Positions 12,626 through 42,237 of a stretch of DNA of 64,000 bases are shown here, piece by piece. The first letter of the stretch is position 1, and each line of letters starts with the position of its first letter. The DNA lies in NCBI GenBank assembly GCA_003212795.1, contig QCOV01000004.1:11762-75761 (forward strand), written 5' to 3'. The stretch comes from OCS116 cluster bacterium AG-435-F03. GTDB taxonomy: Bacteria > Pseudomonadota > Alphaproteobacteria > MED-G09. Position numbers and translations under genes: made by a program. Under the pieces are notes generated by a model, which searched no databases, was not told the origin of the DNA, and saw only the letters and a program-made list of their open reading frames with translations.

Positions 12626-13969
12626 TTGAAATTAAAAAAATCAACTTTGTTTTTTTACAGCTTGGCAGAGATGCCTATAAATATCGCCCTTTTTCCTATC
12701 CTTGTTTTTATTCCTAAATTTTACACTGGTGAAATGGGTGTACCTTTAGCCTTAGCAGCAAATATCATTTTAGCGGTTCGTATTTTTGATGTTTTTACTG
12801 ACCCAGTAGTTGGTTACATCAATGACCGAACTAATACAAAATGGGGAAGAAGAAGACCATGGATTGCAATAGCTACACCCTTACTTATGGTAAGTATCTA
12901 TATGCTATTTATTCCTCCTGAAGGAGCTGGAGCTCTTCATCTTTTCTTATGGATGTTTCTTCTTTCAATAGGAACAACCATGCTCATTATACCTTACTAT
13001 GCTTGGGGTGCAGAGTTATCACCGGACTATAATGAGAGATCAAGAATTACTGGATGGAGATCTATTTCTGGAGTAGTTGGTAGTCTAAGCGCTCAACTTA
13101 TCCCAACTATAGCTCTTGTTTTCTTTGGTCTTGGCGGTAGCACAAATGTTTTGTATATCGTTGGGATTGCTAGTGTAATTATTATGCCCATATGTGTATT
13201 TTTAACTGTATCAAAAGTTCCTGAGTCTAAAGATTACATCAAATCAAACATCTCTCCGATCAAGGGTTTCAAAATTATGTTAGAAAACTCTCCATTTAAG
13301 AGATTAATAATGGCTTTTATGTTTGGAGGTATAGCTTTTTCCATAACAATTCCACTGTATTTATTCTTTATAACTTATGTTCTTAAGGCAGAAGAAATGG
13401 CTATATTTATGCTTACATTTTTTTATCTTACAAATATTGTTGCCGTTCCATTTTGGGTTTGGTTATCAAAGCAAATCGGAAAGCATAAGGCATATATTTG
13501 TAGTTTTGCAATGATTGCATTTGCGCATCCTTTTTATCTTCTTTTGGGTGAAGGAGATTTTTGGTGGATGTTACCTATTACCATTACTACGGGTTTTGCT
13601 GCTGGGGGTTTTGCGGCATTACCAAATTCAATGAAGGCAGATGTTATTGATCTAGATACATTAAAAAGCGGAGAAAATAGATCTGGCCTATTTTTCTCAT
13701 CGTGGTCATTAACTTCAAAATTAGCTGGATCTGTAGGAACATGGTTAGCATTAACAGCATTATCTTGGATTAGTTTTAATACGGGAACAGATGTTAGTAA
13801 CGGTCCGACTCAATTGTTAGGACTTAAGCTTTTATTCTCTACTCTTCCCTCTTTCTTTTTTATAGCTGCAATAATTATTATATGGAAGTATCCTATAACA
13901 GAAGAAATGCATTCAAAAATTCGAAATGAATTAAAAAATTCAAAAACCGAAAGAATTCTTGAAACTTAA
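12626..13969 (+). CDS. GPH-family (glycoside-pentoside-hexuronide) cation symporter, MFS
   Basis: Signature 'DPVVGYINDRTNTKWGRRRPW' as in MelB-type transporters; about 12 TM segments. Confidence 0.65.
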   Translation: MKLKKSTLFFYSLAEMPINIALFPILVFIPKFYTGEMGVPLALAANIILAVRIFDVFTDPVVGYINDRTNTKWGRRRPWIAIATPLLMVSIYMLFIPPEGAGALHLFLWMFLLSIGTTMLIIPYYAWGAELSPDYNERSRITGWRSISGVVGSLSAQLIPTIALVFFGLGGSTNVLYIVGIASVIIMPICVFLTVSKVPESKDYIKSNISPIKGFKIMLENSPFKRLIMAFMFGGIAFSITIPLYLFFITYVLKAEEMAIFMLTFFYLTNIVAVPFWVWLSKQIGKHKAYICSFAMIAFAHPFYLLLGEGDFWWMLPITITTGFAAGGFAALPNSMKADVIDLDTLKSGENRSGLFFSSWSLTSKLAGSVGTWLALTALSWISFNTGTDVSNGPTQLLGLKLLFSTLPSFFFIAAIIIIWKYPITEEMHSKIRNELKNSKTERILET

Positions 13970-14021
13970 GAAGTATTTAATCATTGTAAAATGATATATT
14001 TCTATTATTAAGGCATATCTT

Positions 14022-15461
14022 ATGAGTAACACCATTTCCAACAACACCTTACACTTATACACATTAGGTTCTGGTGCTGTTGGAGTTAAGAATTTATTGT
14101 TTGGATCATGGCTTTTAGTTTATTTTAATCAGATTTTAGGTCTTGAACCATTATTAGCATCTTATGCTCTTGCTATTGCTCTAGTATTTGATGCAATCTC
14201 AGACCCCCTGGTTGGCGCTTGGTCAGACCGTTTTAAATCAAAATGGGGAAGAAGACATCCATTTGTGTATTTAGCAATAATACCTTTCGGTTTAAGTGCG
14301 TATTTTCTTTATTCAATTCCTTCAGATACTTCTCAAACTGCACTTTTTATAAAATTATTAATTGCATCAATTCTTTTGCGAACATTGTTTACTTTTTATG
14401 AGACACCTAGAGCAGCAATTGGTCCAGAACTTATTACTGATTATGAAAGGCGTAACACCTTAAGTGGTTATGGTGTTTTATACGGCAATATGGGTTTGGG
14501 GATTATGAGCTATGCAATGCTAGCTTTTTTTCTTGTGGAAACTGAAACATTTTCAGGTTCACGTGCTTTTTTAAATCCTGAAGCTTATCCAAAATTTGGT
14601 CTTTTAGCTTGTTTTTTAATCATAGTCTTTGGTCTAGTATCTTCATTATCAACACACAAATATATTCCTGACATGGTTGAACCAGATCCTAAGAGTTTTA
14701 AATTTTCTGAATTTTGGAAAGAAATAGTTGAGTCTCTTTCAAATAGAAATTGGTTAGTTCTTTTTACTGCTGGAACTATTTTAGCACTTAATATTGGAAT
14801 ATTTTCAAGTTTAGATAATTATTTTAGTATTTATTTTTGGCAATGGACTCCAGAAGAAATAAGCTTATTTCCAATTATTATAGCGCTTCCAGTTGTTTTA
14901 GCAGGATTCTTTGCGGCACCTTTAGCTAAAGGAAAGAGCAAAAAAAACTTTGCCATAGGCTTATTTCTTATCAATCTCATTGTTGAACCAATGCCAATTT
15001 GGTTAAGATTATTGGATCCATATGTACCAATGCAAATTTTTCCTGAAAATGGAACAGATGCTCTTTGGTGGACAATTATTATATTTTTATGTGTTGGTTA
15101 TTTTTTAAGAACAGCAGGATGGATATTAGTAATATCAATGGTTTATGATGTTGTTGAAGATGGTCAATTAACGACTGGACGAAGAGATGAAGGTCTTTAT
15201 TTGTCCGCAAATGGCTTTATTCAAAAAATAATTAGTGGACTAGGTGTTGTGTTTGTTGGTTTTCTTTTAGAGTTTGTAGGTTTTGATGTAAAAAACCCAA
15301 CAGTATTAGAAATGCAGGAACCAATTTACAGATTGGCATTTTTTCAAGCTATCTTAGGTCCAATTCTAACTTTAGCATCAATCTCATGTATGTTTTTCTA
15401 TAATATTTCTAAATCTTCGCATGAAGAAGCTCTTAAATCTTTAGAAATAGAAAAAGATTAA
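14022..15461 (+). CDS. GPH-family cation symporter, MFS (tandem paralog)
   Basis: Signature 'DPLVGAWSDRFKSKWGRRHPF'; about 12 TM segments. Confidence 0.65.
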   Translation: MSNTISNNTLHLYTLGSGAVGVKNLLFGSWLLVYFNQILGLEPLLASYALAIALVFDAISDPLVGAWSDRFKSKWGRRHPFVYLAIIPFGLSAYFLYSIPSDTSQTALFIKLLIASILLRTLFTFYETPRAAIGPELITDYERRNTLSGYGVLYGNMGLGIMSYAMLAFFLVETETFSGSRAFLNPEAYPKFGLLACFLIIVFGLVSSLSTHKYIPDMVEPDPKSFKFSEFWKEIVESLSNRNWLVLFTAGTILALNIGIFSSLDNYFSIYFWQWTPEEISLFPIIIALPVVLAGFFAAPLAKGKSKKNFAIGLFLINLIVEPMPIWLRLLDPYVPMQIFPENGTDALWWTIIIFLCVGYFLRTAGWILVISMVYDVVEDGQLTTGRRDEGLYLSANGFIQKIISGLGVVFVGFLLEFVGFDVKNPTVLEMQEPIYRLAFFQAILGPILTLASISCMFFYNISKSSHEEALKSLEIEKD

Positions 15462-15543
15462 TAATTTTTAACTGTTCAAGAATAAATAGAGACAAAGATA
15501 ATCAATTAATTTATCTTTATATAGCTTTTGGAGGTTACTACCT

Positions 15544-17127
15544 ATGAGCAAGTTTCAAGTAATTTTCTTGACCATCTCACTGGTGATTTCTGGTTGTGCG
15601 GAAGAGGTAAATGAAAAAATATCTGGTGATAGTTTTCAACAAACCTATTGGGTTGAAGATTATACAAAAGATTTAAATTTTCCTTGGGCAATAACTTGGT
15701 TACCAAATGGAGATCTATTAGTTACTGAGAGATTAGGAAAAATTAAACTAATACGCAAAGGTATCGTTGTTAGTGAAATACAAGGTGTTCCGGAAGTAAT
15801 GGTATCTAGTCCATTTGATGGTTTATTGGATATCAAACTTGATCCTGATTTCGAAACACAGCCTTATATCTATCTCTCATATACCAAAGGTACAACAACT
15901 GAAAGGGTAGGAGTTGTTTATCGGGCAAAAATTAAAGACAACAAATTAGTTGAAGGGAAAGAAATATTTAATACATCTCCTCCAGCCCCAACTGGTGGGC
16001 CAAATATAACAAGAATTAATTTTCTTTCGGATAAATCCTTAGTTGCAGCAGTTGGGTCTAGCGGTCAGCATGCTTATGGCATGGTGCAAAGATTAGATGG
16101 AGATATAGGAAAGATAATAAGAATATATAGAGATGGGACCGTACCCAAAGATAACGCTCTTTCAGCTGATAACCCGGATGCTAAAGCGGAATTATGGGCA
16201 ACTGGTCTACGTTCTATTGGAGGTTTAACACTAGATAACAACGATCAACTTTGGGGTGTAGAAATGGGACCACAAGGTGGAGATGAATTAAACCTTATTG
16301 AAGGTGGAGGAAATTATGGTTTTCCTCTGATTAGTTGGGGTTTTGATTATTCTGGTCGAGCTTTATCAGAAAGACAAACAGCAGCTGGTTTTGTTGATCC
16401 AATAGTAACTTGGAGTCCTTCAATTTCACCTTATGGAATTACTTTTTATCAAGGCGAAGCCTTCCCTAACTGGAATGGTGATTTTTTTATAGGTGTTTTG
16501 GGTGATCAAACAATTATAAGAATGAGAATTCGTGATGGTAAGGTATTAGAGCAACAAGATTTACTTCCTTATCATAATGAGAGAATTCGTTCGGTAGAGA
16601 CTGGCCCAGATGGATTTATATATGCAGTTACAGATTCCTCTAATGGTAAAATTATTCGTTTAAGACCAGGTAAGCCATCTCAAAAAGACCTTGCTAATGT
16701 ATCTAAACCATTCCCTATGCCAAAAACTAACAGTATTGTTGAAAGATTAAGACTACATGGTGTAATGCAAGATGAGGAAACCATGCTAGCTATTCAAGCT
16801 GCGTATGATCAAGAAAGAGCTGAGTTTATTTACAATCAAAATTGTGTAAGCTGTCATAGCTTAAAAGCCAATGCTGAAAGTAATATTGGCCCTCATCTAG
16901 AGTCAATTGCTGGTCGAAGATCTGGGTCTTTACCTAATTATAATTATTCTTCTGCTATGAAAATGAATAATAAAACAAGTGTAATATGGGACTCACGAAC
17001 AATTGCTGCCTATATAACCAATCCTCAAGCAATTTTTCCTGGTACCAAAATGGCTTCTACCCCTCTTAAATTTGAGGATGCTGTTCAGGTTAGTAATTAT
17101 TTAACAAGATTAAAAAATGAAGAGTAA
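15544..17127 (+). CDS. PQQ-dependent sugar dehydrogenase (soluble glucose/sorbosone dehydrogenase-like beta-propeller) fused to a C-terminal cytochrome c domain; lipoprotein
   Basis: Lipobox 'VISGCA'. Propeller motifs ('ITWLPNGDLLVTER', 'GGNYGFPLISWG'). C-terminal heme-binding 'CVSCHS' (CxxCH). Confidence 0.6.
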   Translation: MSKFQVIFLTISLVISGCAEEVNEKISGDSFQQTYWVEDYTKDLNFPWAITWLPNGDLLVTERLGKIKLIRKGIVVSEIQGVPEVMVSSPFDGLLDIKLDPDFETQPYIYLSYTKGTTTERVGVVYRAKIKDNKLVEGKEIFNTSPPAPTGGPNITRINFLSDKSLVAAVGSSGQHAYGMVQRLDGDIGKIIRIYRDGTVPKDNALSADNPDAKAELWATGLRSIGGLTLDNNDQLWGVEMGPQGGDELNLIEGGGNYGFPLISWGFDYSGRALSERQTAAGFVDPIVTWSPSISPYGITFYQGEAFPNWNGDFFIGVLGDQTIIRMRIRDGKVLEQQDLLPYHNERIRSVETGPDGFIYAVTDSSNGKIIRLRPGKPSQKDLANVSKPFPMPKTNSIVERLRLHGVMQDEETMLAIQAAYDQERAEFIYNQNCVSCHSLKANAESNIGPHLESIAGRRSGSLPNYNYSSAMKMNNKTSVIWDSRTIAAYITNPQAIFPGTKMASTPLKFEDAVQVSNYLTRLKNEE

Positions 17128-35660: not shown

Positions 35661-37292
35661 ATGGAAGAAAATTTTGATTACATAATTGTAGGTGCTGGAA
35701 GTGCTGGTTGCGTATTAGCCAATAAATTATCAGATAACGATAAAAACTCTGTTCTTCTTATTGAGGCAGGAGGAAAGGATACAAACTTATTTATCCATAT
35801 GCCTTCTGGATATTCACAAATTGTTCCTAAATCAAACAAGCAAAATTATGGTTTCGAAACTGAACCAGAAAGCAATACAGCTGGAAGAAAATTATATTGG
35901 CCCAGAGGAAGGGGATGGGGTGGGTCATCATCAATTAATGCAATGATTTATACGCGAGGACATTCCTCGGATTATGATCATTGGAGACAGCTTGGTAATC
36001 CTGGTTGGTCTTATGATGATGTATTACCCTACTTTAAAAGAGCTGAAAACTATGAAGGCGATGGTGATGAAGAATTTCACGGGCAAGGTGGTCCACTAAA
36101 TGTAAAAAAATCAACAAGAGAAGATGATATTCTTTTGGATAAGTTTGTTGAAGCCGGCAAACAAGCAGGTTTCCCTTTAACAAATGATTTTAATGGAAAA
36201 CAGCAAGAAGGTTTTTCGCGTTATGAGCATACCATAAAAGGATCTAAAAGATTTAGTTCAGCAAGAGCCTATCTTTATCCTGCGTTAAATAGAAAAAATT
36301 TACATACCAAGACAAATATAACAGTAGATAAAGTTATATTTAAAAATAAAAAAGCAATTGGAGTAGAATATTTAGAAAAAGGTAAAAAGATTCTTAGCAC
36401 TTGTAATAGAGAGGTAATTTTATCCTCAGGCGCAGTAAATTCTCCACAAATATTATTGAGAAGTGGAATTGGAGATCCTGAAGAAATGAAAAAACATGGA
36501 ATTCAAGTTAATCACGAGCTCAAAGGTGTAGGAAAAAATTTACAGGATCATTTTGCTGTAGTTAGTCAATTTGCTTGTACACAACCAGTAACTCTTCATA
36601 GATCGGCAGGCTTTTTTAGTACAATGCTAGCTGGCGCAAAATATTTAATAACAGGAACTGGTGATGCCGCAAATCCACCCTGTGTTGGTGGTGCTTTTAT
36701 AAAATCACAACCTGAAAAAGAAATACCTGATATTCAAATACATTATGTATCAATTGCAATGCAAGATGTTCATGGTAGAGAAGGCGTCCCTCTAGAACAT
36801 GGTTTTTCTAATCTTGTTTATTTATGCAGACCTCAAAGTAGAGGACATATAACACTTAAGAGTTCCGATCCAAATGATGCCCCACTAATGTATCCAAATT
36901 ATTTTTCTGTAGAACAAGACCTAATTGATACTAGAAATGGACTTAGAGAAGCCCGTAGAGTCTTTATGCAGCCTGTTTTTGATGAGTTTAGGGGAGAGGA
37001 ACTTAAACCAGGATCAAATATAGATATAAATGATGATGATGAATTAGATAATTGGATAAGAGAAACTGGCGAAACACTCTATCATCCGGTTGGAACATGT
37101 AAAATGGGCATAGATGAACTTGCCGTAACTAATGAACATGGTCAAGTTCATGGAATTGAGTCTCTAAGAGTTGTTGATGCATCATTAATGCCTAGCTTGA
37201 TTGCTGGAAACACAAATGCACCAACAATTATGATAGCTGAAAAAATATCTGATCATATTAATGGAAAATCATTCTTATCGAAAGAAAACTAG
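35661..37292 (+). CDS. GMC-family oxidoreductase, choline dehydrogenase-like
   Basis: FAD-binding 'DYIIVGAGSAGCVLANKLS', GMC signature 'GGSSSINAMIYTRG', C-terminal 'HPVGTCKMG'. Confidence 0.7.
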   Translation: MEENFDYIIVGAGSAGCVLANKLSDNDKNSVLLIEAGGKDTNLFIHMPSGYSQIVPKSNKQNYGFETEPESNTAGRKLYWPRGRGWGGSSSINAMIYTRGHSSDYDHWRQLGNPGWSYDDVLPYFKRAENYEGDGDEEFHGQGGPLNVKKSTREDDILLDKFVEAGKQAGFPLTNDFNGKQQEGFSRYEHTIKGSKRFSSARAYLYPALNRKNLHTKTNITVDKVIFKNKKAIGVEYLEKGKKILSTCNREVILSSGAVNSPQILLRSGIGDPEEMKKHGIQVNHELKGVGKNLQDHFAVVSQFACTQPVTLHRSAGFFSTMLAGAKYLITGTGDAANPPCVGGAFIKSQPEKEIPDIQIHYVSIAMQDVHGREGVPLEHGFSNLVYLCRPQSRGHITLKSSDPNDAPLMYPNYFSVEQDLIDTRNGLREARRVFMQPVFDEFRGEELKPGSNIDINDDDELDNWIRETGETLYHPVGTCKMGIDELAVTNEHGQVHGIESLRVVDASLMPSLIAGNTNAPTIMIAEKISDHINGKSFLSKEN

Positions 37293-37310: not shown

Positions 37311-37931
37311 TTATGATTTTTGAGGATTTATACCTCTAAAAGTACTGTAATATTTTTGAATATAGGCTAAATCTTCTTCACTATTGCCAGTAGGGTTAAA
37401 GATATTTCCTATTTCTATACTTTTAGTTGGCGCATCAATAGAAATTAATAAAATTTTTGAATGTGTTTGTTTGGCTATTCTCAAAAAACCTGTTTTCCAT
37501 CTCTTTACCTTCTTTCTAGTTCCCTCAGGGGTCATAGCAATAACAATACTTCTTTCTTTTTTAACTATATTTACAACATTCTCGATTAATGATGACGGAT
37601 TATCTCTATAAACAGGAATACCACCAAGCCACTCAAAAAACTTTTTAAAACCAGGTTTAAATATTGAGTGTTTTCCAAGCCATCTTACCTTAATATTCAA
37701 ACCAAAAATTGCTAACATAGCCAAAATAAAATCCCAATTTGATGTATGAGGAGCAGCAATTATCACTATTCTCTCTTCATCAGGAACCTTTCCCTTTATA
37801 GTCCAGCCAGATATATTTATTCCAAATCTAGCAATTTTTCTTAATATTTTAGATCGACTACCTCTCAATCTTTCAGGTATTTGACTTTCAGAAATTCTTA
37901 TAATTTTTCTTATCACTTTACTCCCGCTCAA
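37311..37931 (-). CDS. Lysophospholipid (1-acyl-sn-glycerol-3-phosphate) acyltransferase-like
   Basis: HX4D motif 'AAPHTSNWDF' and 'TPEGTR' motif. Confidence 0.5.
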   Translation of the reverse strand: MSGSKVIRKIIRISESQIPERLRGSRSKILRKIARFGINISGWTIKGKVPDEERIVIIAAPHTSNWDFILAMLAIFGLNIKVRWLGKHSIFKPGFKKFFEWLGGIPVYRDNPSSLIENVVNIVKKERSIVIAMTPEGTRKKVKRWKTGFLRIAKQTHSKILLISIDAPTKSIEIGNIFNPTGNSEEDLAYIQKYYSTFRGINPQKS

Positions 37932-37959
37932 TATATTTCTGTGGGTATTTAATTATGGA

Positions 37960-39372
37960 TTAAAAATCCAAAACATATAATCCACCATAAATATAATCAC
38001 CTTTTTCTTTTCTTAGTTTAAATTTTTCAAAAAATATCATTTTAAAATTAAATTTTTTACAAAGACCCTCAATATATTTTTTTGAGTGGGAATAACGCCC
38101 TGAAGTTTCAAGGGTAAAACCATCTGATTCACTATTATGCTCAGTAGTAAATGCAAATTTACCGCTAGACCTATTTCTTGATTTAATAAGACGAAAAATT
38201 TCCGTTACATCACCAATATAAATAAAAACATCAGTTGATACAAAAACATCAAAATTAATATTTTTATTTTTTAAATAAGACTCAATATCCTCAATAATAA
38301 GATCATCATATACATTTTTTAATTTAGCTTTTTGTATCATTTTTCTGGATAGATCGACACCTATTATTTTTTTAGCAAAACCAGAAATCTGCTCTCCAAC
38401 GAGTCCTGTGCCACAACCTAAGTCTAATACTGATCCAAGAGATTTATCAAAAAACCTATTAATTAATATATTACTAATAAGTTTATGAGCATTATATTCA
38501 AGCTCATTTACTAAATTATTTTCAAAACTTGTGGCGTATTGATCAAATAATCTTTCTACATATTCTCTTGGTGGGCTTGATGTTGTCTTACCTTCTAGAG
38601 CAGATAGAAGATGTTGAGCCTCCAATTGTAATTGTTGAGAATCTATATTGTCCGGCTTAATTGAACTTACTTTTTTATAACATTCTATAGCATCTTCTAA
38701 TTTACCTAAATAATTATAGATTGAACCTAAATTATTATATGCTTTATAATTATTTGGCATTATATTTATAGCTCTTTTATTCCAATTTATGGCTTCTTGA
38801 TAATTTCCAAGATCTTTAAAAGTTAAGGCCAAATTGTTAAAAGCCTCAATATAATCGTTTTTTATATCAATCGCTTTAAGATACATATTTTTGGCCTCTT
38901 CATATCTTGTCAAACTCCTTAGAACATTACCTAAATTATAATAGGCAAAAGGAAAATTTGCTTTTATATTAATAGCCCGTAAAAGATTAGATTCAGCATC
39001 TTTAAATTTTTCTAATCTGTGCTCTACAACACCAAGATTACAATATGCATCAGCAAAGTTTGGATTAAGTGAGATTGCTTTTTTATAACTTTCTTCCGCA
39101 CTAGATAATTTTTGAAGTTTATCTAAAACATTTGCATAGTTAAAATGTAACTCACAATCATCTGAATTTAAAAAAATTAGTTTTTTATAAATAATTGCAG
39201 ATTCTTCTAGCAAACCCTCTTTATTGAGCAATGAACTCATTACTTTTAAAACAAAAGGATGATCGGGATAATCCCGTAATAGTGATTGAGCAAGAATTTT
39301 AGTACGAGCATAATTTTTATTACGATAAAGATGAAAAAGTTTTTCAATTTTTTTTTGAGATAATTTTTTCAT
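37960..39372 (-). CDS. TPR-repeat protein fused to a C-terminal class I SAM-dependent methyltransferase
   Basis: Multiple TPR units ('AISLNPNFADAYCNLG', 'AIDIKNDYIEAFNNLA') and SAM motif I 'VLDLGCGTGLVGE'. Start taken at the ATG at 39372 (MKKLSQ...); the ORF track extends to a GTG at 39384. Confidence 0.55.
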   Translation of the reverse strand: MKKLSQKKIEKLFHLYRNKNYARTKILAQSLLRDYPDHPFVLKVMSSLLNKEGLLEESAIIYKKLIFLNSDDCELHFNYANVLDKLQKLSSAEESYKKAISLNPNFADAYCNLGVVEHRLEKFKDAESNLLRAINIKANFPFAYYNLGNVLRSLTRYEEAKNMYLKAIDIKNDYIEAFNNLALTFKDLGNYQEAINWNKRAINIMPNNYKAYNNLGSIYNYLGKLEDAIECYKKVSSIKPDNIDSQQLQLEAQHLLSALEGKTTSSPPREYVERLFDQYATSFENNLVNELEYNAHKLISNILINRFFDKSLGSVLDLGCGTGLVGEQISGFAKKIIGVDLSRKMIQKAKLKNVYDDLIIEDIESYLKNKNINFDVFVSTDVFIYIGDVTEIFRLIKSRNRSSGKFAFTTEHNSESDGFTLETSGRYSHSKKYIEGLCKKFNFKMIFFEKFKLRKEKGDYIYGGLYVLDF

Positions 39373-39474
39373 GCTCACTCCCACTCAGTAATAACCCAAT
39401 TTTAAACCCTTGTAGCACATGGGTTTTAAAGGAGTAAAAAAAATTGTGTAACTTTTGTGTAACTGTTTTTCCAT

Positions 39475-39996
39475 TTAATAACCAATAAGAAGCAAACCTT
39501 TTAAGTCCAATTTTATTCTTTGTGTTGAATAAAATGGTTCAAGCCATTCGTATATTTTTAGATAATCATTTCTCCCTCTGTAACACTCCCTAACAGCAAT
39601 AACTAAATATTTAATATCTGTCATCATCGCAGCTTCAAAAACATCTTTTAAGAATTGGTGGTTATCTAATGCTCTCCCTGCTTCAACCTCTATAACAATA
39701 CCTGCTTCTTCTTTCCAAGCATCAACCTCAAAGAATAATCTTGCTTTATCCTCATTTCCTACATAGACAGGCATCCTTATCTTGTCCTTTTTAGCTTTAC
39801 TTTTTTCTACTAAAAATCCTTCTGCTTCAAGATCAGATTCAACTACTCTTAAAACATCGTCGCTAGATAATCTTCCTTCATTAGTTGAGTCATTTGAAAA
39901 TGAATCAATTTCATTTTCATGATTTTTGAATATATTTACTACTCTTTTAATGGATTCAGGAATATCATCATTTCTAGGAAAATAAGAGTAGTTCAT
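39475..39996 (-). CDS. ORFan hypothetical protein (possible nuclease-like fold) within a repeat-bounded insertion hotspot
   Basis: 173 aa; acidic N-terminus with alternating beta-like C-terminal 'FFEVDAWKEEAGIVIEVEAGR...KYLVIAVRE'. Flanked by repeats related to the guaA 3' end. Confidence 0.35.
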   Translation of the reverse strand: MNYSYFPRNDDIPESIKRVVNIFKNHENEIDSFSNDSTNEGRLSSDDVLRVVESDLEAEGFLVEKSKAKKDKIRMPVYVGNEDKARLFFEVDAWKEEAGIVIEVEAGRALDNHQFLKDVFEAAMMTDIKYLVIAVRECYRGRNDYLKIYEWLEPFYSTQRIKLDLKGLLLIGY

Positions 39997-40014
39997 AGCA
40001 AGTATATTCTTAAG

Positions 40015-40052
40015 TTATTGATTTTATTCACTTTATTCCCACTCAATAATAA
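40015..40052. repeat. 38-bp exact direct-repeat copy of the guaA 3' end plus downstream sequence (att-like)
   Basis: 'TAAGTTATTGATTTTATTCACTTTATTCCCACTCAATA' is identical to 40315-40352, which spans the guaA stop codon. Confidence 0.7.
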
Positions 40053-40061
40053 CCTTTTGAA

Positions 40062-40274
40062 CTATAGCCATTTCCAAATGGTATGTAATGATATCCAAAT
40101 AGCAAACCCAATCCCACTGAAAAATAAAAAAAGTAAAAAACCTGATAAACTTTTAAATCTAGTAAATATTTCATTATCAGGTTTTTTACTTTTCTTTTTA
40201 GATTCTTCAATCATTTCATTAATTATTTTTTTGTTAAGTTCAGGTGAGATTTTTCTGTTTTTATCAACATTCAT
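40062..40274 (-). CDS. Small hypothetical tail-anchored membrane protein (doubtful)
   Basis: 70 aa with a Lys-rich N-terminus and C-terminal TM. It lies over a 20-bp inverted repeat, so it may not be a real gene. Confidence 0.2.
   Translation of the reverse strand: MNVDKNRKISPELNKKIINEMIEESKKKSKKPDNEIFTRFKSLSGFLLFLFFSGIGFAIWISLHTIWKWL
40129..40193. repeat. 20-bp perfect inverted repeat (25-nt spacer), hairpin flanked by A/T runs; possibly a bidirectional terminator or miniature element core
   Basis: Arms 'AAAAGTAAAAAACCTGATAA' (40129-40148) and 'TTATCAGGTTTTTTACTTTT' (40174-40193). Confidence 0.6.
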
Positions 40275-40314
40275 TTTAATTTATCCAAAATTCTATACAA
40301 TCTATAAATATCTA

Positions 40315-40352
40315 AGTTATTGATTTTATTCACTTTATTCCCACTCAATAGT
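40315..40352. repeat. Direct repeat copy B (native guaA 3' end)
   Basis: Same 38-mer as 40015-40052; includes guaA codons for '...TIEWE*'. Confidence 0.7.
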
Positions 40353-41897
40353 GCCAGGTGGTTTTGATGTTATATCGTAAACCACTCTATTAATTCCTTT
40401 TACTTCATTAATAATACGAGTACTTACATTAGCTAAGAACTCTTGTTGAAAAGGATAATAATCCGCTGTCATACCATCAAGTGAAGTCACAGCCCTTAAA
40501 GCACAAACAAAATCATATGTTCTCTCGTCTCCCATCACACCAACCGTCTGAACAGGCAAAAGTACAGCAAAAGCTTGCCAAATCTCATTATAAAGTCCGG
40601 CTTTTCTTATCTCTTCAATATAAATAGTGTCAGCTTTCCTTAAAATATCGGCTTTTTTAGAAGAAATTTCACCAGGTAAACGAATTGCAAGTCCAGGGCC
40701 TGGAAATGGGTGTCTCTCAATAAAGTGACTGGGAATTCCTAGTTCTTTTCCGAGTTCTCTAACTTCATCTTTAAAAAGTTCTCGCAAAGGCTCAACTAGC
40801 TCCATATTCATTCGTTCTGGAAGCCCTCCTACATTGTGATGGCTTTTAATTGTCACAGATGGTCCACCCGTAAAAGAAACGCTCTCAATAACATCCGGAT
40901 AAAGAGTTCCTTGAGCTAAAAAATCTGCTCCGCCAATTTTGTTTGCCTCTTCTTCAAAAATATCGATAAAAGAGGAACCAATAATTTTTCTTTTTTCTTC
41001 AGGATCACTTACTCCAGTCAATCTAGTTAAAAAAGTATCGCCTGCATCAACATCTATAAGAGGAATATTAAAATTTTCTCTAAATAGATTTACTACTTCA
41101 TCCGTTTCATTCTCTCGCATTAAACCTGTATCCACATAAATGCATGTCAATTGGTCTCCGATTGCTTCATGAATAAGAACAGCTGCAACAGATGAATCTA
41201 CCCCTCCTGAAAGACCACAAATTACTTTTCCTTTTCCGACTTGAGTTCGTATATTCTCAATAGCAACCTTTTTAAATGAATCCATTGTCCAGTTACCGCT
41301 ACATCCAGAAATTTTATGAGTAAAATTTTTCAGTAATTTTGCACCATTTGGAGTATGAACAACCTCTGGATGAAACTGTACACCATAAAATGATCGGATT
41401 TCATCAGAAATAGCCGCAAATGGAGCGTTTTTACTTTCTGCAATAACTTCAAATCCTTTTGGCAGTTTTGTAACTTTATCACCATGACTCATCCAGACAG
41501 GTTCTGTATTTCCTTTAATATCGAACCCCTCAAATAAAGGTGAAGGCTTCAGGAATTTAATATTTGCTCTACCAAACTCTCTTTCATTTGATTTTTCTAC
41601 TTCGCCTCCAAGCAATGAACACATGATTTGTTGTCCATAACAAATTCCTAAGATAGGAATTTTTAAATCAAATATTTTATCATCAATTGTTGGCGCATCT
41701 TGGTTGTTAACTGATGCAGGACCACCTGATAATATAATGCCTTTTGGTTTTAATTTTTTAATAGCCTCATCTGCTTTTGAAAAAGGAAAAATCTCAGAAT
41801 AAATTCCACTCTCTCTTACCCTTCTTGCAATAAGCTGTGTAACTTGGCTACCAAAATCTAAAATTAAGATTGAATCGTTGTGTTGATCGTTTACCAT
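40335..41897 (-). CDS. guaA: GMP synthase (glutamine-hydrolysing)
   Basis: N-terminal glutamine amidotransferase ('[20 protein letters not shown]', 'GICYGQQ'), ATP-PPase 'SGGVDSSV', C-terminal dimerisation domain ending 'TIEWE'. Confidence 0.9.
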
Positions 41898-41910: not shown

Positions 41911-42237
41911 CTACTCCTCTTTCTTTTTATTATTTATAAGAGATTCTAAATCTTTTACATCCATTAGAAGAGGTCCGAGTGCTTTGGCTTTTTTATAAAA
42001 TATCTCAGCAGATGGTAAATCTTCACTCAGTAGGTAAATTTTACCCGCAATTGCCCAAGCCTTTGCATTTTTAGGATCAGCAACTACACTTTGTTGAATA
42101 AGAAAGATAGCAGATTCCAAATCTTTTTCTGCTATTTTAATTGCTTCCACTGCAAGATCATTAGAAAGAGATTTATTGGTTGCATTAGCTAAAAGGGGAG
42201 AAAATAAAATACCTATAAAAATTATAACCCTTATCAT
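41911..42237 (-). CDS. Small periplasmic TPR-like protein
   Basis: Signal peptide and helical repeats; inserted between guaB and guaA. Confidence 0.4.

Follow-up and report, generated by a model that had tools for sequence, protein, structure and literature searches.

We analysed a 64-kb stretch of contig QCOV01000004.1 from OCS116 cluster bacterium AG-435-F03, referred to below as the window, in which a short array of repeat-bounded genes lies between guaA, the gene encoding GMP synthase, and an acyltransferase gene. Coordinates are positions in the window, the array is read in the guaA sense, which is the minus strand, and contigs and loci compared with the window carry L-numbers as labels (L001, L040, L293 and so on). 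The array is preceded by guaB, a small TPR gene and guaA, and the order continues as guaA, core A, unit 1 (open reading frame ORF70), core B, unit 2 (ORF173), core C, unit 3 (a TPR-methyltransferase gene), core D and the acyltransferase gene. The target gene guaA (40335-41897, minus strand) was recognised by its Pfam GATase and GMP_synt_C domains (E 3e-49 and 2e-44), and its product was 87% identical to GuaA of a 'Rhodobiaceae' metagenome-assembled genome (MAG; L001), the closest species-level genome. Its last codons, ...ATT GAG TGG GAA TAA, are the source of the recombination core. No tRNA gene was found in the window.

The 38-mer TAAGTTATTGATTTTATTCACTTTATTCCCACTCAATA has exactly two copies in the window, at 40011-40048 and 40313-40350 with a spacing of 302 bp, while 100 shuffled sequences gave no match even when 3 mismatches were allowed. 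The preliminary description of this locus had recognised an exact 38-bp direct repeat, which is real, but had placed the first copy 4 nt off at 40015-40052 and had divided the repeat into 18 nt of guaA and 20 nt of downstream sequence; it in fact comprises 16 nt of the guaA coding sequence, of which 13 are coding and 3 form the stop codon, and a further 22 nt beyond it. Core A (40313-40350, minus strand) is the attL-like guaA tail with the octamer GAGTGGGA at 40339-40346, followed by the 22 nt AGTGAATAAAATCAATAACTTA. Core B (40011-40048, minus strand), the second exact copy, has its octamer at 40037-40044, forms the junction of units 1 and 2 and is attP-like in composition. The third related core reported beyond the 173-aa reading frame was recovered as TCCCACTCAGTAATAACC at 39379-39396, matching 40037-40054 at 17 of 18 positions, and where the acyltransferase gene starts a fourth, degenerate core was found (37916-37931, minus strand, TTGAGCGGGAGTAAAG). 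The octamer is exact in cores A, B and C and reads GAGCGGGA in core D. A search of the window for TTGAGTGGGAATAAAG with up to 3 mismatches returned 8 matches where 1.2 were expected.

Unit 1 (264 bp, 40049-40312, minus strand) holds ORF70 (40062-40274) and a 33-bp hairpin (about 40110-40212) and is without a full 3' module, as just GGTTATT precedes the core. Unit 2 (632 bp, 39379-40010, minus strand) carries ORF173 at 39475-39996 as cargo and closes with a 3' module and core C (39379-39474, minus strand; core ACTGAGTGGGA, octamer 39379-39386). Within this module, tandem direct repeats of GTTACACAA with an 11-nt period occupy 39455-39463 and 39444-39452, and an inverted motif, AAACCC..GGGTTT, occupies 39404-39426. 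Core C abuts the start region of the gene encoding a TPR and S-adenosylmethionine (SAM)-methyltransferase protein (37960-39372, minus strand; Pfam TPR and Methyltransf families), the cargo of unit 3 (~1.45 kb, about 37932-39378, minus strand). The core also recurs in inverted form inside this gene, with 1 mismatch (TTGAGTGGGAATAACG), at 38082-38097 (plus strand); this copy encodes SGRYSHS and is probably a coding coincidence, because the motif is conserved as SGRFSHS in the L237 homologue. Unit 3 ends at the attR-like, degenerate core D (37916-37931, minus strand; ATTGAGCGGGAGTAAAG, octamer at 37922-37929), to the right of which lies native flanking sequence opening with the GTG start of the acyltransferase gene. 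This PlsC-like gene (37311-37913, minus strand; Pfam Acyltransferase 2e-12, NCBIfam AGP_acyltrn) is the conserved right flank of the locus.

Conspecific contigs, chosen for sharing the window's upstream gene order and for having a GuaB in its 90% cluster, included an empty form of the site. L293 aligned to the window at 44708-40330 (98.3%) and at 37933-36919 (98.5%), with the two blocks overlapping by 21 nt in L293, and in both L293 and L294 the acyltransferase gene lies directly beside guaA. Their junction, ...ACTATTGAGTGGGAATAA joined to AGTGATAAG..., consists of the guaA stop codon, 1 nt and the acyltransferase GTG start (the empty junction of L293 is also given as ...ACTATTGAGTGGGAATAA joined to AGTGATAAGAAAAATT...), and the window sequence to the right of core D is collinear with this empty allele (...GAGTGGGAATAAAGTGATAAGAAAAATTATAAGAATTTC). 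The 22 nt AGTGAATAAAATCAATAACTTA are missing from L293. Because L293 and L294 are 98% identical to the window on both flanks and their two genes are 1 nt apart, the ~2.4 kb between guaA and the acyltransferase gene in the window is an insertion. The whole insertion, made up of three units, extends over 37934-40329 (minus strand), with boundaries that are ambiguous within the 21-nt shared core. The TPR-methyltransferase gene is absent from L293, L294, L292, L296 and L096.

At least eight alleles were present among the conspecific contigs, so that the interval, which the preliminary description had proposed comparing among relatives, proved to be both variable and, in one allele, empty; at least seven other alleles differ in their first cassette. 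One of these has a single cassette encoding an amine oxidase according to Pfam (L292, L295), another has a 43-nt "solo" insert in which the 38-mer is joined to a second short core (L296, L298), and four further first cassettes were found in L291, L297, L299 and L300. In L291 a different insert of ~2.6 kb (13505-16130) follows guaA and similarity resumes at window position 36054; the acyltransferase gene and part of a GMC oxidoreductase gene are without a window match there, or the stretch is unresolved. About six of the ten conspecific contigs end no more than about 200 nt past guaA and one ends inside it (L290, L295-L300), and the contig of the nearest genome (L001, 7560-7711) likewise stops just past guaA. 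Since the site is repeat-bounded and hypervariable, short-read assemblies break at it, and with the break falling directly behind guaA the content of such arrays is systematically missed in MAGs.

Units of the window array were also found intact in other surroundings. The ORF173 unit is 100% identical over 619 bp (39997 to 39379) in 10 metagenome contigs where other sequences flank it left and right; its right junction always falls at the end of GAGTGGGA, after which three different sequences follow. The ORF70 unit is 100% identical over 247 bp in L096-L098, where it stands behind another upstream gene, and the order in L096 is gene X, ORF70, core, a gene for an HNH-HIT protein, a full 38-nt core and the acyltransferase gene. 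A metagenome scan for partial 38-mers identified 51 loci, and 50 of the 51 matches were guaA ends or cassette ends in guaA-linked arrays; within the window the 38-mer is confined to this locus. Across 380 kb of sequence from the scan loci and other contigs, 160 cores were in the guaA orientation and 10 were reversed. Some 60-odd metagenome loci yielded ~76 distinct inter-core units (median 750 bp, range 42 bp to 6 kb), and the longest reading frame was co-oriented with guaA in 55 of 64 units. At these junctions contexts diverge directly after GAGTGGGA on the right and a few bases before ATTGAG on the left.

Several units elsewhere contain two genes. ORF173 is preceded by a protein of ~300 aa with a GIY-YIG domain in L081-L087, L216 and L232, and in L096-L098 ORF70 is the second gene behind the nuclease-like gene X, with overlapping stop and start codons. 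By comparison, the ORF70 and ORF173 units of the window are trimmed one-gene versions of two-gene units. A minimal arrangement, which we call an 'empty cassette', was observed in L204, L206, L207, L213, L222, L240, L242, L245, L246, L296 and L298: the 38-mer is followed 4-8 nt on by a second short core (e.g. TTAGTAAATATTGAGTGGGAATGA), giving a 42-44-nt insert with the left arm only between two cores. Additionally, in L209 (11190-11300, oriented copy) the 22-nt arm follows TGGGA (...CAATTGGGA) where a 553-aa gene other than guaA has its 3' end, possibly a secondary integration site comparable to the TGGG sites that the integrase (Int) of the genomic island GIsul2 is reported to use.

A conserved module of ~95 nt was present on 48 of 92 distinct cassette ends. 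Its order is two tandem direct repeats with an 11-nt period, a spacer, the motif AAACCC(TT)-N7-11-(AA)GGGTTT, about 18 nt and the core. The tandem repeats fall into several types (GTTACACAA twice, TTACTACACAC twice, GTGACAAAC/ATGACAAAC, ATACAAAG twice and others; the arm repeats are also written GTTACAMAA, TACTACACAC and GACAAAC), defining at least eight module subfamilies, and the two copies within a module are always alike. One module type of 86-96 nt was 87-92% identical on eight cassettes at eight loci with unrelated cargo, and the ORF173 gene was found with two different module types. The inverted motif AAACCC..GGGTTT is conserved as sequence. An RNA or single-stranded DNA hairpin in the module was rejected, as RNAalifold predicted no consensus structure for 29 aligned modules and the 8-bp stem named for the inverted motif did not covary. 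A reading of the module and units as sigma-70 promoters or terminators was likewise not supported (20 promoter-like sites against 17.3 expected and no terminators in a simple scan), and a Xer/dif-type site was dismissed by eye, there being no ATAA-N6-TTAT arrangement.

Two types of guaA were found to carry these arrays. Window-type guaA encodes proteins 77-100% identical to the window GuaA that end in ...PPGTIEWE, with a GC content of about 31%, and the source names of its 90% clusters are "Hyphomicrobiales/Alphaproteobacteria bacterium"; one window protein falls in a cluster named "Rhodobiaceae bacterium". The guaB-guaA type encodes proteins 52-57% identical that end in ...PPATIEWE, has a GC content of 37-39% and belongs to clusters named "Gammaproteobacteria bacterium" and "SAR86 cluster bacterium". 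A 108-aa TPR-like reading frame (41911-42237, minus strand) separates guaB from guaA in the alpha lineage and is absent from gamma-type loci, in which guaB and guaA are adjacent. The ORF173 cassette was 94.6% identical at the nucleotide level in L210, where the adjacent GuaA fragment shares 85% identity with the gamma type and 61% with the GuaA of the window, and L299 (alpha) and L213 (gamma) have a common cassette start (95.7% over 93 nt). The 22 nt AGTGAATAAAATCAATAACTTA past the stop codon are identical behind alpha- and gamma-type guaA even though synonymous sites of the guaA ends differ, and are therefore part of the incoming DNA. The first 5 nt of this arm equal the native alpha site, a hint, and not more than that, that the arm arose in the alpha lineage.

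ORF173 had been called an ORFan in the preliminary description, a status that is withdrawn here, as 105 homologues across phyla were found at E ≤ 1e-3. Residues D92, E103, E105 and K117 are invariant among 54 sequences, and the AlphaFold model (mean predicted local distance difference test score, pLDDT, 92) gave OkrAI and BamHI as best PDB matches in Foldseek (E 2e-3, probability 1.0, TM score 0.56). The search for a nuclease fold suggested earlier was thus answered by a restriction-nuclease fold: the model assigns ORF173 a BamHI/OkrAI-like PD-(D/E)xK fold, and D92, E103 and E105 would be equivalent to BamHI D94, E111 and E113. ORF173 shares with BamHI and OkrAI this predicted fold and the D...E-x-E signature, and differs from them in sequence (14-16% identity), in matching no Pfam or PADLOC family and in having no cognate DNA methyltransferase beside it, since it stands alone in the window and in five other loci and the TPR protein of the window is a generic SAM methyltransferase rather than a DNA methyltransferase. 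ORF173 may be a modification-dependent nuclease or an orphan. A homologue 71% identical to ORF173 lies divergent to a C5 DNA methyltransferase gene in the island L091/L092 (137-8522), so the family apparently travels in other island types too. The same island was seen to encode a P4-type integrase, two C5 DNA methyltransferases and a DUF6339 protein, with a tRNA 3' fragment alongside, as judged by eye.

Neither ORF173 nor ORF70 had a Pfam, PADLOC, NCBIfam or PDB-sequence match, and exact-protein look-ups for the window GuaA and TPR-methyltransferase returned no record. ORF70 would encode 70 aa with a C-terminal hydrophobic segment and overlaps a hairpin of 33 bp with a 25-nt loop (about 40105-40215, minus strand; 26-nt arms at 40123-40148 and 40174-40199; -31.8 kcal/mol, z -6.05) in which Lys-rich and Phe-rich codons pair together. 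Unit 1 may be a structured element rather than, or besides, a gene. Cassettes elsewhere encode predicted nucleases (BglII, Bpu10I and Eco47II), C5 and N6 methyltransferases, MrcB-HNH, HNH, GIY-YIG and HNH-HIT proteins, a zeta-toxin-like kinase, sulfotransferases, FkbM or TPR methyltransferases and an amine oxidase. Judged by these assignments, restriction-modification genes are abundant among the cargo elsewhere.

The 8-mer GAGTGGGA forms the crossover core and had been described before for GIsul2 (PMC9376610). This island uses 5'-GAGTGGGA-3' at the guaA 3' end as its insertion site, and the guaA end is rebuilt in the process; the tyrosine Int of GIsul2 and the att sites suffice for integration, and the specificity of Int relaxes to TGGG at poor sites (PMC9376610). 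Int acts as well in the excision and integration of the att-flanked CR2-sul2 unit, which does not encode an integrase itself (PMC9376610; Harmer et al. 2017 cited therein). The guaA 3' end had been called an island target in other bacteria, and several integrative mobilisable elements (IMEs) do use it (PMC5704250). We found integrases directly behind guaA in Sphingobium and Brevundimonas genomes (L040, L061, L066); the Sphingobium enzyme of L040 and the GIsul2 Int of pAB3 share 57% identity. In pAB3 GIsul2 the attLR arm, which lies upstream of the internal att site, reads CATGGTATTTTTCATGGCACT, 60 nt including AAAGGGTTTT, then GAGTGGGA, and the marine cassette module reads GTTACACAAAAGTTACACAA, 56 nt including AAGGGTTT, then GAGTGGGA. 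Tandem repeats 56-60 nt from the core are thus the layout of GIsul2 attLR, and the ~95-nt cassette-end module is laid out like the GIsul2 P arm. The arms of L040 and L348 likewise contain tandem TGACGGTA pairs that repeat every 11 nt, and many viral or island contigs with GIsul2-family integrases have ATTGAGTGGGAAT(A/G)A about 320 nt from int.

Taken together, we consider it likely that the window array consists of three tandem integrase-less cassettes accreted at the guaA GAGTGGGA core by an integrase of the GIsul2/P4 type acting in trans. The earlier proposal of att-like scars left by site-specific integration at the 3' end of guaA is supported by the empty allele, the variety of alleles and the guaA-linked 38-mer; all the checks suggested with it, the nuclease-fold search included, turned out in its favour. 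Its tandem small cargo units can be extended to a third cassette, the TPR-methyltransferase gene, closed by the fourth core that had been missed. Under this mechanism, a tyrosine integrase with an arm-binding domain, supplied by another element, would bring about recombination between GAGTGGGA in the tail of guaA and the identical octamer of a cassette in circular form. With every integration the guaA stop codon would be rebuilt, and a second core copy would remain behind the cassette as the place of entry for the next one. We infer which enzyme acts from the core, the target and the layout of the arm, and the tandem repeats would be its putative arm-type binding sites. As cassettes are co-oriented with guaA and the core falls a few bases before the next start codon, read-through expression from guaA is plausible.

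A more far-reaching possibility is that this is a working, integron-like cassette system on another recombinase family, in which a cassette of a reading frame, a ~95-nt arm module and GAGTGGGA would be moved at guaA by a GIsul2/P4-type integrase in trans, circulating single genes, mainly for restriction and other defence nucleases and for surface modification, between two classes of abundant, streamlined marine bacteria, SAR86-type Gammaproteobacteria and a Rhodobiaceae-like alphaproteobacterium. We put this forward tentatively, with somewhat more doubt than confidence. That cassettes still move as circles would be part of it, and no excised circle was observed.

Several other observations weigh against an integrase acting in trans. 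An iterated hidden Markov model of the P4/GIsul2 type, started from the L091 integrase, had no match at E ≤ 10 in either the window or any of 90 array loci (484 kb), which for the window agrees with the preliminary description that no integrase remains; Pfam identified no recombinase among 20 cassette proteins, and no integrase was found at the 51 + 13 + 10 array-bearing loci or in linkage with the 22-nt arm. Neither the 38-mer nor a relaxed 26-nt pattern (GGGA and the next 22 nt) matched a viral contig, so a phage attP was rejected as the source of the 38-mer, and the marine 22-nt arm was in none of the viral contigs with GIsul2-family integrases. The cassette repeats differ in sequence from the GIsul2 arm repeats and among the at least eight module subfamilies, and the lack of covariation in the inverted motif counts on this side too. 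The ORF70 and ORF173 units begin in other contigs 5 nt and 1 nt before the ATG and not at a core; extra deletion or illegitimate recombination is therefore needed, and such events would also shape cassettes. Lastly, with the full module missing from units 1 and 3 and one position of core D mismatched, part of the window array is perhaps fossil or fixed.

Other candidates for a mobile source were set aside. The 101 viral matches to the 16-mer of the guaA tail were prophage or island att sites of other bacteria with nothing in common beyond that tail, the low-GC candidate L352 was Gilliamella-like, and the 38 viral matches to the arm-repeat pattern GTTACAMAAAAGTTACAMA were of the order of the chance number by a rough estimate, with one podovirus-like group that looked similar. 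Viral contigs L251, L256, L277 and L287 (32% GC, podovirus-like genes) carry an intergenic site of three GTTACAAA copies, ATTGAG and ATAAAAGTATTTAAAATCAATGACTTA that agrees with the 22-nt arm region in 21 of 27 positions; the parts of these contigs that were examined showed no integrase.

The main rival to trans-acting integration is a fossil additive flexible genomic island, in which the cores are old att scars or short repeats and variation arises by homologous or microhomology recombination after DNA uptake, with guaA, the cores and the acyltransferase gene as anchors and no recombinase acting now. Additive islands with repeated tRNA 3' 20-mers are generally interpreted in this way (PMC10872708), and the lack of an integrase in 484 kb of array-bearing sequence, the degenerate core D, the units without a module and the left boundaries at the starts of reading frames would all be compatible with it. 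We nevertheless regard it as unlikely, as unrelated cassettes keep a ~95-nt paired-repeat module that is 87-92% identical, the octamer marks the exact position of the junctions, 160 cores point one way and 10 the other, and the same cassette and 22-nt left arm stand behind the guaA of two classes without flanking homology on which homologous recombination could act.

Two further explanations carry much less weight. The repeats could belong to a dispersed element, whether of the repetitive extragenic palindromic (REP) or miniature inverted-repeat transposable element (MITE) kind or a regulatory one such as a terminator or ribosome-binding site, that resembles the guaA tail, or they could be an assembly artefact. 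A core lying 3-15 nt before many cassette starts could indeed serve as a ribosome-binding site, and unit 1 does contain a strong hairpin; the confinement of the 38-mer to this locus in the window, the guaA linkage of 50 of 51 metagenome matches and a simple scan that found no terminator-like sites in the region make a dispersed or regulatory element very improbable, and the same can be said of an artefact, given that independent assemblies (L096-098, L205, L218, L237) give the same junctions. A chromosomal integron-type array, that is, a cluster of attC sites lacking an integron-integrase (CALIN) with attC cassettes moved by IntI, is to us scarcely credible. Although the cassettes are small, mostly single-gene and co-oriented, with a conserved non-coding end and no integrase nearby, their boundary is GAGTGGGA and not GTTRRRY, their module consists of direct repeats and a short inverted motif with neither hairpin nor covariation, rather than the imperfect palindrome R''-L''/L'-R', and their anchor is the coding end of guaA rather than an attI beside intI, with no tyrosine recombinase found.

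Streamlined ocean bacteria have large flexible gene pools and few recognisable mobile elements, and how single genes enter and leave their genomes is an open question. The guaA locus offers a fixed entry point, a defined 8-bp crossover, empty and filled alleles in one population and near-identical cassettes in two classes. In the literature that we searched, cassette arrays linked to guaA were not described for SAR86, SAR11 or other marine oligotrophs. If active movement of the cassettes does take place, they would represent a second cassette-capture system on the integron principle, built on a well-studied integrase family; this would explain the exchange of restriction and other defence genes among marine plankton and is directly testable with the existing GIsul2 two-plasmid assay.

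Comparison with known systems places the array closest in its target to GIsul2 and CR2-sul2, with which it shares insertion at the guaA 3' end, the identical 8-mer GAGTGGGA at the junctions (exact at A, B and C; GAGCGGGA at D) and a guaA end rebuilt on integration, as well as extra att sites that yield sub-units without an integrase of their own, the accumulation of units at attR and an arm with two tandem repeats about 60 nt, and the motif AAGGGTTT about 22 nt, from the core. It differs in the absence of int, alpA and rep genes, in units of 0.3-2.5 kb with a single gene in place of a 15-kb island, in other arm-repeat sequences in at least eight subfamilies, in its streamlined marine Alpha- and Gammaproteobacterial hosts and in a cargo of nucleases, restriction-modification and surface-modification genes rather than antibiotic resistance. 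Because a tyrosine integrase of its own (arm-binding domain plus Phage_integrase) beside attL is missing, the array is not a GIsul2 member in the strict sense; it appears to use a GIsul2-family site.

With integrons and CALINs the array has in common co-oriented, promoterless-looking single-gene cassettes that are closed by a module, share one fixed entry point and occur across taxa. In contrast, there are no attC sites with GTTRRRY and no IntI with an attI upstream, no tyrosine recombinase was found in the 64-kb window, and entry is at the end of a housekeeping gene. Additive islands and tycheposon arrays (PMC10872708; bioRxiv 10.1101/2020.12.28.424599) resemble it in their strain-variable blocks, in repeats of the last ~20 nt of the target gene and in streamlined planktonic hosts without classical mobile elements. 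The strain-variable blocks parted by target-gene 3' repeats that define an additive island are seen here in the at least eight alleles and in the cores arrayed at 60-odd loci, whereas those systems are tRNA-anchored, tycheposons having recombinases of their own, and this array is anchored at guaA with no linked recombinase; neither a tRNA or tmRNA target nor a tycheposon-type recombinase was found.

Stacks of att-flanked, integrase-less cis-mobilisable elements (CIMEs) are a described outcome of tandem accretion, as in the ICESt1 family, and the guaA 3' end is among the sites that several IMEs target (PMC5704250). The array agrees with CIMEs in retaining attL and attR, in having no recombinase or transfer genes and in stacking by repeated integration at an att site in a gene end. 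CIMEs are described as decayed integrative and conjugative elements (ICEs) or IMEs, usually one or two per site, whereas five or more minimal cassettes can be arrayed here. As to decay from an ICE or IME, no remnants of int or transfer genes are seen, a standardised 3' module is present and two of the window units are shorter than the two-gene versions elsewhere; this standardised end module may speak for a designed cassette format over decay.

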